From a virus, in the IMG/VR virus record IMGVR_UViG_3300009788_000096, positions 1 to 64,000 of that record: DNA of 64,000 nt. The stretch is one strand, 5' to 3'. The notes below the pieces were generated by a model that saw only the letters and a list, made by a program, of their open reading frames with translations, searched no databases and was not told the origin of the DNA. The first letter of the stretch is position 1; each line of letters opens with the position of its first letter. Of the stretch, positions 4,799 to 14,261 are shown one piece after another. The position numbers were made by a program, and so were the translations under genes.

Positions 4799-4859
4799 AA
4801 GCTACCTCATCAGTATAGCTTGCTTAAGGCCATAGACCCTCGGTGGCCGAGGGTTTCGG
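4799..4859 (-). ncRNA. type II hammerhead ribozyme HH14
   Basis: CCGAAAC CCTCGG-CCA-CCGAGG GTC^ TATGG..CTATA CTGATGA GG; loop AAGC/tail GCTT; cut 4835/4834. Confidence 0.92.
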
Positions 4860-4860
4860 A

Positions 4861-5070
4861 TTACTTCAACATGCCTTTGTGTTTCATTTCTGCACAAAGT
4901 CCGCGAGCTTCGATAATCAATGCTTTTAGTCTTTCTTCATCTTCGTTTTCAAATTCTTCATCAGAATCAGCTTGTGGAAGGTTTGCTAATTGAATAACTA
5001 ATCGTCCACATTTATTCAGCATTGATTCTTCCATTAGCGCTTGAGCAAATAGCTCGGTTTTTGAACTCAT
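4861..5070 (-). CDS. hypothetical protein
   Basis: AAAGGAG SD before MSSKTELF. Confidence 0.65.
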   Translation of the reverse strand: MSSKTELFAQALMEESMLNKCGRLVIQLANLPQADSDEEFENEDEERLKALIIEARGLCAEMKHKGMLK

Positions 5071-5103
5071 ACTTAAATCATCTCCTTTCGGATTATACAC
5101 TTA

Positions 5104-5286
5104 TCAATTAATGTCAGGTAATTCTTTTCGCCAGATACTGAAATCGCGGACCATTTCATCAAATGACTTCCATGTAAATCGGACATGAAGTTTCTTGCCA
5201 TTTTCATCAGTCAAATGCATGACCATTTTCTTTCCACGCCGAACCTTCAAACCGCGATACTCTTTAATTTCAATTCCTTTCGCCAT
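5104..5286 (-). CDS. hypothetical protein
   Basis: Tightly packed in the operon. Confidence 0.6.
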   Translation of the reverse strand: MAKGIEIKEYRGLKVRRGKKMVMHLTDENGKKLHVRFTWKSFDEMVRDFSIWRKELPDIN

Positions 5287-5288
5287 AG

Positions 5289-5522
5289 TTAATCCCTTTC
5301 CTGCAGTTCATCGATTAAGGAAGCTTCCCGCCACTGTCCACATTTGGTTTTAACAAAGTCTCCCCATGTGATTTGGTCGAAAGGGAGCCAACCTTTATTA
5401 TGGACTAACATCCGGGGCACACCTGAAATCTTACTGATCTTAGGTTTCCTGCCTTCCCGCATTGTCTTCTGTTTCAGAACTAATTTGTCCAAGTGATCAA
5501 TGAAGTCAATTGTTTCTGCCAT
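5289..5522 (-). CDS. hypothetical protein
   Basis: AGGAGGATTAATTATG leader. Confidence 0.7.
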   Translation of the reverse strand: MAETIDFIDHLDKLVLKQKTMREGRKPKISKISGVPRMLVHNKGWLPFDQITWGDFVKTKCGQWREASLIDELQERD

Positions 5523-5543
5523 AATTAATCCTCCTTTAGTTAT

Positions 5544-5607
5544 TAGGTTATCTCATCAGTACGCAAGTTCCTATCTTGCGTAGACTCCCGGAAGCCGGGA
5601 GTTTCGA
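5544..5607 (-). ncRNA. type II hammerhead ribozyme HH13
   Basis: TC-GAAAC TCCCGG..CCGGGA GTC^ TACGCAAG..CTTGCGTA CTGATGA-GA (stem II covaries, GA/TC); loop TAGG/tail CCTA; cut 5583/5582. Confidence 0.92.
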
Positions 5608-5608
5608 A

Positions 5609-5980
5609 TTATGAATACTCCAATACCATTTTCTTGTCGCCGTTTGGAAGTGTTTCCATACTTACATTTGTTACTTCATCGTATGGAATCACGTTTTCAG
5701 TGGCCGCGATGTTGTAATCTTGGACAAGCAAATGCAGCTTGTCCATTGTTCCGGATTGACTTCCCCAGTGATCGTAAATGATATCTCCATCCGCTGTAAC
5801 GGCGATGGGATATTTCCAGCCGGGAAGCTTTATTTCGGCCACTGCATTTTTGACTACATGGCTGCCAAACAGGCGAACTTCAAGATTTGGGCCTGAAACA
5901 ATTTCGCCATGTTTTTGTGCGACAATGCAAAGTGTGGAAAGATCGGAAATCCGTTTACCGTATGTCGTGTTATGACTCAT
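5609..5980 (-). CDS. DUF1257-like protein
   Basis: MSH start, 'IKLPGWKYPI...YDHWG' pattern; usual partner of Ycf46 and DUF2997. Confidence 0.7.
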   Translation of the reverse strand: MSHNTTYGKRISDLSTLCIVAQKHGEIVSGPNLEVRLFGSHVVKNAVAEIKLPGWKYPIAVTADGDIIYDHWGSQSGTMDKLHLLVQDYNIAATENVIPYDEVTNVSMETLPNGDKKMVLEYS

Positions 5981-6338
5981 TTAACTTCTCCTTTCTTAAT
6001 CTACCAGAATCGTATGCATCAGATGAACAGGCGTTATTGCAGTACTTCGTAGCTTCGCTATGATAGTACATGCAATCGTGATACATACATTTTTTTAAAT
6101 TCGACGTAACCAGTTTTTGACTTTTGACTACTCCCTTAGAATTTTCATCATTGAGAAGAGAAACAATATCGGCCTTGCTAAGCGACCATTTGAGATGAAC
6201 TTGATAAACCCGCTTGTCATAAAAATCTGAATAGCGGTTGAAAATTTGTTGCGCTTCCAAACGATCTATAGACCATATTGCGGTTTCAGTGTCAATACTG
6301 GTTATAACCGTTTTCCAAATAAATACACTATGTGGCAT
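5970..6338 (-). CDS. hypothetical protein with C-terminal Cys cluster
   Basis: AAAGGAGAGG SD before MPHSVF; C..C..YCNNAC. Confidence 0.6.
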   Translation of the reverse strand: MPHSVFIWKTVITSIDTETAIWSIDRLEAQQIFNRYSDFYDKRVYQVHLKWSLSKADIVSLLNDENSKGVVKSQKLVTSNLKKCMYHDCMYYHSEATKYCNNACSSDAYDSGRLRKEKLNES

Positions 6339-6349
6339 GGCCTCTCCTT

Positions 6350-6511
6350 TTAGCCGCGAACACGGTCGAAGTGTTCGTAGTGGGTTTGGACAATCCAACC
6401 ATACTTTCCTAATAGCCAAATCAATTGACTAATATTCATAGTATGACATTTGCCGATAAGATTTTGACCCGACATAAAATGCTGGGCTTCAATATGATAT
6501 TCGGTCAACAT
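6350..6511 (-). CDS. small hypothetical protein (53 aa, below the ORF-track cutoff)
   Basis: GGAG SD, MLTEYHIEAQ...; fills the gap exactly. Confidence 0.55.
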   Translation of the reverse strand: MLTEYHIEAQHFMSGQNLIGKCHTMNISQLIWLLGKYGWIVQTHYEHFDRVRG

Positions 6512-6520
6512 AATGATCTC

Positions 6521-6730
6521 CTATCCGCAATGCCCCGAGGGGAGGCCGTCTGCGAGGTTATTCTTTTCGGTTTGGTGATACTCGTCTTTGTACACGCGCT
6601 CTTTTGGCTTACCGAAAAGATCGTCAAGAAATGAAGTCATACTGATGCATCCTTCACCTACGGCGCCGAATACTTCAGTTTTAACACTTCCGTCTTTGCC
6701 AAAAATGATCTCAACTTTTTTCTCGTCCAT
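6521..6730 (-). CDS. DUF2997-like protein
   Basis: 'VEIIFGKDGSVKTEVFGAVGEGCISMTSFLDDLFG' matches the DUF2997 pattern. Confidence 0.8.
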   Translation of the reverse strand: MDEKKVEIIFGKDGSVKTEVFGAVGEGCISMTSFLDDLFGKPKERVYKDEYHQTEKNNLADGLPSGHCG

Positions 6731-12866: not shown

Positions 12867-12869
12867 CGG

Positions 12870-13337
12870 TTATTGATTATTTACTTCGTCGATCAGCATG
12901 ATTGCGAGATTGTATTTTCCTAAAGTTACTTCCTTCATGTGACCGTAAAAATAATCAATAACTTCATGATAACGAAAACAAACCAACATCCATATGGGAA
13001 CACGCCATTTCAGAGCAAGAAATGTTTCACTTTTTTCAAGTTGAAAGCTTTGATGTCCCGCCGCGGATTGTTTTACTTCGTTTCTGAACTTCTCAAAAAA
13101 ATCAGCCATTCCGCCCGGATTGCCACCGTTATGACAGCGATCCATAAGATAAGCGGTAACAGCGAGGTGATCTTTTTCAGGAACGTTGGAAATACGAACG
13201 CAAGAAAGAAGTAATTTAAACTTATCGCTTTTATCGTTCGCATAAAGATAAAGACCTTTGTTATCTTCGCCACCAAATTGTACAAAGTCAGCTAAATGAA
13301 TCAGTTTCGTAAATACTTCACGATTGAAATTTGCCAT
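12870..13337 (-). CDS. hypothetical protein
   Basis: GGAGG SD. Confidence 0.7.
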   Translation of the reverse strand: MANFNREVFTKLIHLADFVQFGGEDNKGLYLYANDKSDKFKLLLSCVRISNVPEKDHLAVTAYLMDRCHNGGNPGGMADFFEKFRNEVKQSAAGHQSFQLEKSETFLALKWRVPIWMLVCFRYHEVIDYFYGHMKEVTLGKYNLAIMLIDEVNNQ

Positions 13338-13367
13338 GATAAAATCCTCCGTTATATAGTTATTATT

Positions 13368-13434
13368 TGGCTACCTCATCAGTACGTGGCAACCACACCA
13401 CGCAGACCGGGACTTTGAGAGCTCCCGGTTTCGG
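13368..13434 (-). ncRNA. type II hammerhead ribozyme HH3
   Basis: Full core; stem III CCGGGA/TCCCGG; loop TGGT/tail GCCA; cut 13405/13404. Confidence 0.9.
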
Positions 13435-13435
13435 A

Positions 13436-13678
13436 TTAAGCATTTTCGATATCGAAGCAGATGTCACGCTTCAACTGGGCAAGCCTGGCAAGTCTTTTCA
13501 TACCGTATTCTTTTGCAGCAATACGAAAAGATTCAAGCTTAACCAAGTTGGTCATCTTGTCGATACGATCACTTAACTGTCCATCGTCCATGGAAGTAAT
13601 ACGTTTAACAGCATGAGCGATAGAATTTTCAGTCACTTTAGTCGAAAGAATTTTTGCGATGTTAATTGTGTTACTCAT
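13436..13678 (-). CDS. hypothetical protein
   Basis: GGAGG SD before MSNTINIAK. Confidence 0.7.
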   Translation of the reverse strand: MSNTINIAKILSTKVTENSIAHAVKRITSMDDGQLSDRIDKMTNLVKLESFRIAAKEYGMKRLARLAQLKRDICFDIENA

Positions 13679-13714
13679 AATAAAATCCTCCATTATTTAG
13701 TTATTAACTTCATT

Positions 13715-13781
13715 TGGCTACCTCATCAGCACCGACCAGCCACGGCCAGTGGACTGGGCCAACTAAAAGCCCAGTTTCGGT
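13715..13781 (-). ncRNA. type II hammerhead ribozyme HH2
   Basis: Full core; loop TGGC/tail GCCA; cut 13752/13751. Confidence 0.88.
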
Positions 13782-13925
13782 TTACTTTTGGTAATGTAGA
13801 TAAACTAAGAGTTTTTGTTCGACAAGTAATAACGCGATGTGAAGCGTTATATTACTTGACCAGATTTGGAACGCGGTTTCTTTTTTCGTTTCCGTATGGA
13901 TCGCTCGTAATTGATACTTTTTCAT
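13782..13925 (-). CDS. small hypothetical protein (47 aa)
   Basis: AAGGAG SD, MKKYQLRAIH... Confidence 0.55.
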   Translation of the reverse strand: MKKYQLRAIHTETKKETAFQIWSSNITLHIALLLVEQKLLVYLHYQK

Positions 13926-13935
13926 TTTTCTCTCC

Positions 13936-14085
13936 TTAGAAGATTACTTTTTTAAACAGTTTAATTTGAAGGTTTAAAAACCATTGGAAATGATACCAGC
14001 GAGCTAAACGAACATTGGATTCAACATCGATATTGGATTCAACATCGATATTTGAACTATTACTTTTGGTAATTTTCTTTTTCAT
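13936..14085 (-). CDS. small hypothetical protein (49 aa) with an 18-bp tandem duplication (NIDVES x2)
   Basis: AGGAGG SD; in-frame direct repeat at about 14014-14051. Confidence 0.55.
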   Translation of the reverse strand: MKKKITKSNSSNIDVESNIDVESNVRLARWYHFQWFLNLQIKLFKKVIF

Positions 14086-14094
14086 TATAGCCTC

Positions 14095-14178
14095 CTAAGC
14101 CATATATAAAACAGTTGAAAACAAAGTAAAACACGAAATCGCGATAACAAGTAAAATCTTTTCATTCTTTTCTAACAT
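14095..14178 (-). CDS. 27-aa hydrophobic peptide, first gene of the early array
   Basis: GGAGG SD, MLEKNEKILLVIAISCFTLFSTVLYMA. Confidence 0.55.
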   Translation of the reverse strand: MLEKNEKILLVIAISCFTLFSTVLYMA

Positions 14179-14203
14179 TTAAAACCTCCGTTATATAGTT
14201 GTT

Positions 14204-14261
14204 TGACTACCTCATCAGTATCCAGCCATCACACTGGATAGACATCTAAAAGATGTTTCGG
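14204..14261 (-). ncRNA. type II hammerhead ribozyme HH1
   Basis: CCGAAAC ATCT-TTT-AGAT GTC^ TATCCAG..CTGGATA CTGATGA GG; loop TGAT/tail GTCA; cut 14241/14240. Confidence 0.92.

Follow-up and report, generated by a model that had tools for sequence, protein, structure and literature searches.

The window considered here, a 64,000-nucleotide stretch of viral DNA comprising positions 1 to 64,000 of the 95,402-bp IMG/VR virus record IMGVR_UViG_3300009788_000096, carries fifteen type II hammerhead ribozymes (Rfam family RF02276), all fifteen of which lie on the minus strand, from position 14263 down to 2048. Neighbouring hammerheads (abbreviated HH and numbered HH1 to HH15; Table 1) are separated by between one and five open reading frames, and the genes concerned are mostly small and without assignment, the exceptions being one AAA ATPase and one DUF3150 protein. 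The junctions follow a common order: in nearly all copies, the UAA stop codon of one gene abuts the 5' flank of stem II or overlaps it, while 3' of the ribozyme tail is found an A/U-rich leader containing (A/U)UAAC(C/U)U, followed by AGGAGGAUUAAUU and then AUG. Each ribozyme lies between one gene's stop codon and the leader and Shine-Dalgarno sequence that precede the following gene. The explanation favoured here, to which a probability of roughly 85% is assigned as a whole, is that these elements are type II hammerheads, each with a pseudoknot between the loop of stem I and the 3' tail, situated between the early genes of a single leftward operon of about 13 kb in an uncultured phage with a 95-kb genome.

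Membership of the type II family was examined by scoring and by structure. A scan with RF02276 returned 14 minus-strand sites from 2050 to 14263, each with E<0.004, and nine of these 14 exceed the gathering cut-off of 37 bits (37.1-57.8 bits), the remaining five scoring 32.3-36.8 bits (E 0.00025-0.0036). The fifteenth copy, HH12, was not reported by Rfam and was recovered at 7266-7334, with its CUA cleavage site, by a scan for the core motif together with the expected helices; it scores 55.6 bits against R1, a covariance model built from the fifteen copies, a value to be read in light of the presence of HH12 in the R1 training set. R1 itself gives fifteen matches in the window and no further copy, Rfam detects no additional hammerhead in the remainder of the record, and a megablast comparison of window positions 1-16000 with a phage collection gave no match. 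At the level of simple motifs, 13 minus-strand occurrences of CTGATGAG were counted, from 4806 to 14218, where 1.8 would be expected for the whole window.

Each copy, as placed by the Rfam scan and an explicit parse, reads 5' to 3' as the 5' strand of stem II, CGAAA, the stem III hairpin and a U-H cleavage site, then the stem I hairpin, CUGAUGA, the 3' strand of stem II and the tail. Both the Rfam alignments and the parse display the type II permutation, in which loops cap stems I and III while stem II is open-ended. The catalytic core of conserved nucleotides (C3-U4-G5-A6-N7-G8-A9 and G12-A13-A14) is present as CUGAUGA plus CGAAA in 14 of 15 copies, the exception being HH15, and the N-U-H triplet directly 5' of stem I is GUC in twelve copies and AUC, GUA and CUA in one each. 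Stem II is short, at 2-3 bp, and is CC/GG in 12/15.

In all fifteen copies a helix of 4-6 bp joins the loop of stem I to the tail of the same copy. Its tail strand begins 3-5 nt past A9 of CUGAUGA, equivalent to 2-4 nt past CUGAUGAG, which is close to the 3-4 nt given in a preliminary description of this DNA. The 14 loop/tail pairs listed there are all present, and 13 of them belong to the CTGATGAG copies lying inside 4799-14240; the GGCT/AGCC pair is that of HH15, outside this range, and HH7, which carries CTGATGAA and the pair GGCG/UGCC, lies inside it and had been missed. Several helices also extend further than had been listed, among them UUUAGC/GCUAAA, UUGGGC/GCCUAA and UUGAUU/AAUCAA. Thirteen distinct helices occur among the fifteen copies, with HH4 identical to HH6 and HH10 identical to HH11.

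Table 1. Hammerhead copies and other features of the array. Cleavage positions are predicted from sequence; the alternative label is a second designation of the same copy.
Feature	Position	Strand	Alternative label	Predicted cleavage	Loop/tail pseudoknot	Rfam result	Remark
HH1	14198..14263	minus		after C 14241	UGAU (14228-14231)/GUCA (14204-14207)	49.9 bits	
HH2	13709..13782	minus	13729	13752	UGGCU (13738-13742)/AGCCA (13715-13719)	57.8 bits	
HH3	13362..13436	minus	13382	13405	UGGUU (13391-13395)/AGCCA (13368-13372)	57.3 bits	one G.U
HH4	12798..12868	minus	12818	12842	UUGAUU (12828-12833)/AAUCAA (12802-12807)	36.8 bits, E 0.00025	
HH5	12306..12376	minus		12350	AUAGG (12337-12341)/CCUAU (12310-12314)	40.2 bits	
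HH6	11870..11940	minus	11890	11914	UUGAUU (11900-11905)/AAUCAA (11874-11879)	39.6 bits	helix as in HH4
HH7	11417..11507	minus	11437	GUA site 11460	GGCG (11446-11449)/UGCC (11424-11427)	37.1 bits	atypical; weak pairing
HH8	10721..10791	minus	10741	10765	UGAC (10752-10755)/GUCA (10726-10729)	33.9 bits, E 0.0014	
HH9	9825..9905	minus		9870	UUGGGC (9855-9860)/GCCUAA (9829-9834)	34.4 bits	long stem III; one G.U
HH10	9123..9191	minus	9143	9165	UUUAGC (9152-9157)/GCUAAA (9127-9132)	36.5 bits	
HH11	8463..8531	minus	8483	8505	UUUAGC (8492-8497)/GCUAAA (8467-8472)	39.7 bits	helix as in HH10
HH12	7266..7334	minus	7286	CUA site 7308	UGGCA (7295-7299)/UGCCG (7272-7276)	no report	stem II GUC/GAC; tail strand abuts stem II
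HH13	5539..5609	minus	5559	5583	UAGG (5570-5573)/CCUA (5544-5547)	40.1 bits	
HH14	4793..4861	minus	4813	4835	AAGC (4822-4825)/GCUU (4799-4802)	32.3 bits, E 0.0036	
HH15	2048..2127	minus	2068	2091	GGCU (2076-2079)/AGCC (2054-2057)	40.1 bits	core CCGAUGA
AAA-ATPase gene	3620-4765	minus					
Leader, AGGAGGAUUAAUU and AUG	e.g. 8437-8466, 4765-4795, 10692-10722						10-45 nt downstream of each hammerhead
Promoter-like site	15294-15321	minus					TTGTCA, 16 nt, TG-TATCAT; about 1 kb upstream
Terminator-like hairpin, strong	14272-14299	minus					directly upstream of the first hammerhead
Terminator-like hairpin, strong	1093-1130	minus					downstream of the array's last gene

Short complementarities of this kind invite the objection that they are due to chance, or are a by-product of a repeat maintained at the DNA level without function in RNA; indeed, single 4-bp matches are common between an 8-nt tail and a loop of 6-10 nt, and shuffled tails, with G.U pairs permitted, average 3.4 bp in each copy. 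The set as a whole behaves differently. At least 4 bp are found in 15/15 copies, an outcome reached by none of 20,000 shuffles, and the complementarity observed was never attained when tails were shuffled (0/20,000). In a permutation test in which tails were swapped among copies, with the register left floating for cognate and swapped pairs alike and with helices sought in a restricted loop and tail window, the summed helix length with G.U allowed was 74 bp as compared with 56.4 +/- 3.6 under swaps (equalled in 1/200,000), while Watson-Crick pairs alone summed to 66 versus 45.3 (0/200,000). A wider helix measure, taking in 2 nt of the stem together with the bases of stem II, was noisy and was replaced by the restricted window, although it too gave 9/100,000. 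Similarly, the mean duplex energy is -6.0 kcal/mol for cognate and -3.6 kcal/mol for non-cognate combinations, and single comparisons display the expected compensation, as when a U-to-A change in the loop between HH11 and HH14 is mirrored in the tail by one from A to U. Given in addition an invariant core surrounded by helices that all vary with compensation, as well as the covariation described below, an origin by chance or as a DNA repeat is considered exceedingly improbable.

Evidence from related phages was obtained by using the AAA-ATPase gene as a query, which identified nine related viral contigs with protein identities of 43-58%. In seven of the nine, the same operon contains an array of type II hammerheads; the two more distant relatives, L008 and L009, gave no hammerhead match. 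Fifty-two hammerheads from this phage and its relatives were then aligned with R1 on the nested stems only, leaving the pseudoknot unfitted (alignment A2). An earlier MAFFT alignment, A1, was out of structural register in stems III and I and served solely to seed R1; a strict motif scanner missed copies with an extra nucleotide after A9 in L006 and L007, and these were recovered by Rfam and a more tolerant scanner. Pairing across the A2 structure amounts to 94%, and, counting the pseudoknot, changes on both sides are seen at 20 of 22 pairs. The pseudoknot columns (75-78 with 104-107) are 85.2% paired, as compared with 66.9% after shuffling, and have a covariation score of 0.393 against 0.139, neither value being reached in 500 shuffles; slid controls were 14-52% paired, and all four central pseudoknot pairs change on both sides. 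These figures, including the 85% pairing, are underestimates because some families, such as that with GCUAAA, lie one column out of register. A shared 7-nt loop frame, AU-NNN-AA, provides a particularly direct view, as it is occupied by UGAC/GUCA in HH8, UAGG/CCUA in HH13 and UGGU/ACCA in the relative L002, with all three variable positions compensated. Since the pairing covaries both here and in related phages, selection is argued to act on RNA rather than on a plain DNA repeat, as the preliminary description had proposed; its extension of selection for catalysis to every copy goes too far in view of HH7 and HH15, considered below.

The contact itself is well established. The loop I/3'-tail pseudoknot was defined in the type II hammerhead consensus, and its truncation or mutation reduced the observed rate constant for cleavage (k_obs) by 20- to more than 100-fold, with activity restored by compensatory mutation (Perreault et al., 2011; PMC3088659), which bears out the view that such pseudoknots are activating tertiary contacts. 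In the same study, stem II was commonly 2 bp long and the addition of a base pair to it lowered activity. The copies in the window share with RF02276 the core CUGAUGA...GAAA, the permutation, a stem II of 2-3 bp and a pseudoknot in which at least 4 bp join loop I to the nucleotides immediately following stem II, and do not differ in kind. The Rfam consensus carries a UGG loop and an AGCCA tail; a GCC-type tail of this sort is kept in 6/15 copies, while the other nine have shifted from UGG/CCA to other compensated pairings, so that covariation is unusually visible within one genome.

Whether the pseudoknot compensates for the short stem II, as had been suggested, can be addressed by comparison. 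A search of viral contigs for the stem III pattern yielded, for the most part, unrelated hammerheads (L010-L014, among them one in L011 that is not type II), and L010 proved to contain five type II copies (107, 361, 697, 1540 and 3042, minus strand) with a 4-bp stem II, GACC/GGUC, and a 7-bp stem I. These five, in which loop I is the 3-nt UAU, have no convincing pseudoknot and were not detected by Rfam or R1 at the thresholds used, whereas three neighbouring copies with 5-nt UGGCU loops, interleaved with them, form UGGCU/AGCCA. Together with the 2-3 bp stems of the window and the published mutational data, this contrast renders compensation plausible, though as a correlation only.

The arrays of the relatives also bear on why the pseudoknots of the window vary. 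Arrays with a constant pseudoknot are found in L001-L004, L006 and L007. In L001-L003 (e.g., L002 1787-7596), which belong to one related phage species, the modules are near-identical over about 70 nt, with stem III common to 7/8 copies, a likeness suggestive of gene conversion between copies or of their recent spread, in contrast to the diverged array of the window. In L002, six of eight copies are identical in stem I, loop and pseudoknot; all nine copies of L004 have GGUU/AACC, and the 10 copies of L006 and L007 all have GUGGUG/AGCCA, the number of copies per contig in L004, L006 and L007 being 4-9.

The window, by comparison, holds about five helix families, namely a GCC type with six copies, GUCA with two, AAUCAA with two, CCUA with two and GCU(A/U) with three, and these families track similarity in stem I and in the loop. 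Firstly, then, the claim that each copy has its own pseudoknot is sustained insofar as the match is copy-specific (tail swaps, at most 1/200,000) and overstated insofar as 13 helices in some five families serve fifteen copies. Secondly, the distant relative L005 repeats the loop types AUAGGAA, GUGACAA and CUGGCUA of the window, and the hammerhead just before the AAA-ATPase gene has a different pseudoknot in each phage. From the families, the recurrence of loops in L005 and the differing pseudoknots ahead of the AAA-ATPase gene, the diversity is best read, on comparative sequence grounds, as the probable outcome of duplication and turnover of modules with compensatory drift, the contact being retained by selection. 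The pseudoknots do not look like a designed orthogonal set.

The alternative advanced previously is that the diversity is adaptive insulation, which would block pairing of a tail with the wrong ribozyme on a transcript containing fifteen of them and make recombination of one copy with another at the DNA level less frequent. In its favour, the 15 copies form 13 distinct helices, 10/15 loops have their cognate tail in first or second place when tails are ordered by duplex energy, and the longest exact word common to two modules is just 26 nt, with a median of 13. Nevertheless, 24 of 210 non-cognate combinations (11%) match the cognate one in stability, the adjacent copies HH2 and HH3 are interchangeable, as are HH10 and HH11, and a hand count along the transcript places members of one family side by side about as often as a random order would, twice against about 2.8 times expected. 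Stem III and the core are exactly shared over 25-26 nt between modules, and distant competitors would be kinetically disadvantaged if strands about 20 nt apart fold during transcription. Related arrays such as those of L002, L004, L006 and L007 lack such diversity. On these grounds the idea of diversity as a safeguard against cross-folding or recombination gains no support, and insulation is regarded as very unlikely.

A second functional account holds that the pseudoknots are tuned copy by copy, helix length and stability setting the cleavage rate and hence the ratios or timing of messages derived from a single transcript. Cognate duplex energies span about -2 to -8 kcal/mol over helices of 4-6 bp, and shortening of the pseudoknot from 6 to 4 bp lowered k_obs about 20-fold in the work of Perreault et al. 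(2011; PMC3088659), who raised the possibility that the slower variants from phages are subject to regulation. Variants in the core or in stem II are, moreover, located at particular junctions (HH15 and HH7). The core of HH15, CCGAUGA (2062-2068), in which U4 is replaced by C, also occurs at L001 2737, L002 6973, L003 4828 and L010 3580; in L001-L003, where the arrays are otherwise homogeneous, the first hammerhead to follow the AAA-ATPase gene downstream has this core, accompanied by a distinct compensated pseudoknot, UUGUU/AACAA. A hammerhead with the CCGAUGA core may be a deliberately slow variant. No pattern of strength was found along the array, however, and the strengths observed fit equally well with drift above a minimum threshold, leaving tuning an unlikely account of the set. 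The broader proposition that the spread of pseudoknots is functional in some way, whether by grading the amounts of the 15 mRNA units through junction-specific rates or by affording partial orthogonality for independent folding, is likewise judged improbable.

With regard to mechanism, the pseudoknot formed between the 4-6 nt of the loop and the tail past the 2-3 bp stem II would keep stem I alongside stem II and, as the literature indicates, dock the former against the latter to allow fast cleavage at low Mg2+. Each ribozyme would cut during transcription, dividing the early operon RNA into units of one to five genes, the upstream product of each cut presumably having the stem III hairpin and a cyclic phosphate at its end and the downstream product starting with stem I. 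In 15/15 copies the predicted cut precedes stem I, with loop and tail both 3' of it and hence on the same downstream fragment; that fragment starts at a paired nucleotide, and its structure ends 10-30 nt ahead of the Shine-Dalgarno sequence. Stem I and the pseudoknot would thus persist as a structured 5'-OH end of each downstream mRNA.

This geometry, in which loop and tail stay together on the downstream fragment in every copy, lends itself to the suggestion that the pseudoknot acts also, or mainly, after cleavage, as a compact 5'-OH structure shielding the mRNA from 5'-end-dependent decay. The suggestion is purely inferential, and the catalytic role already accounts for conservation of the pseudoknot; a post-cleavage role is accordingly held to be doubtful. 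Circularisation of excised units by way of chimeric hammerheads is sterically conceivable, as stem II is CC/GG in 12/15 copies and the pseudoknot lies wholly on one fragment, but Perreault et al. (2011; PMC3088659) reported that no circular or spliced products were detected.

The processing of a long transcript into smaller units is also the role suggested for the known prophage clusters, in which genes are flanked by multiple hammerheads (Perreault et al., 2011; PMC3088659). Those of Clostridium scindens, Azorhizobium caulinodans and Agrobacterium tumefaciens (Figure 3 of that study) resemble the present array in the co-orientation of hammerheads bracketing individual phage-derived genes or short runs of them. 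The array differs from them in its number of copies, 15 as compared with about three, and in the very regular order of stop codon, ribozyme, conserved leader, Shine-Dalgarno sequence and AUG. No later papers on large phage hammerhead arrays were found in the literature searched.

Several points weigh against the explanation favoured here. The polycistronic transcript is deduced solely from the orientation of the genes and the promoter- and terminator-like sites at the ends, and self-cleavage of these copies is a prediction. Six of the fifteen copies fall under the Rfam gathering cut-off or are missed by Rfam, and a single 4-bp helix is weak evidence, such that the case rests on the whole set. 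Finally, two copies may be slow or inactive: HH15, with its C4 core, and HH7, which has an A.C mismatch at 10.1/11.1 at the base of stem II, where G10.1-C11.1 is normal, a pseudoknot of 3-4 bp, and a long stem III with an insertion of about 34 nt.

The wider surroundings of the array offer some further observations. The array is bracketed by a promoter-like site and two terminator-like hairpins, all on the minus strand (Table 1), and the hairpin directly upstream of the first hammerhead may be an attenuator governing entry into the array. One form of the leader, UAACUUUAAGGAGG at 12289-12310, resembles the 'epsilon' translational enhancer of T7 gene 10 (UUAACUUUA). The same leader precedes the gene at 6521-6730 without any ribozyme. 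A hammerhead-free junction at 6760-6830 (minus strand) contains a 14-bp perfect hairpin embedded in a more extended fold (-31.6 kcal/mol, z -4.5, 0/200 shuffles), located just 5' of the usual leader and Shine-Dalgarno sequence; this may represent some other element for processing or stabilisation, such as an RNase III site. An unusually long spacer of 111 nt (11320-11416 region) separates HH7 from the next long open reading frame.

As the contact was described and tested in 2011, the case is a clear example of it and no new mechanism. What the array provides is a clean natural instance in which 15 paralogous ribozymes of a single genome display 13 compensated versions of one tertiary contact, and in doing so it lends independent support to the 2011 pseudoknot model. 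It also represents a natural set of variants with which the effect of pseudoknot sequence and strength on hammerhead speed could be measured, while the homogeneous arrays of the related phages argue that diversity among pseudoknots is unnecessary for a working multi-ribozyme transcript.

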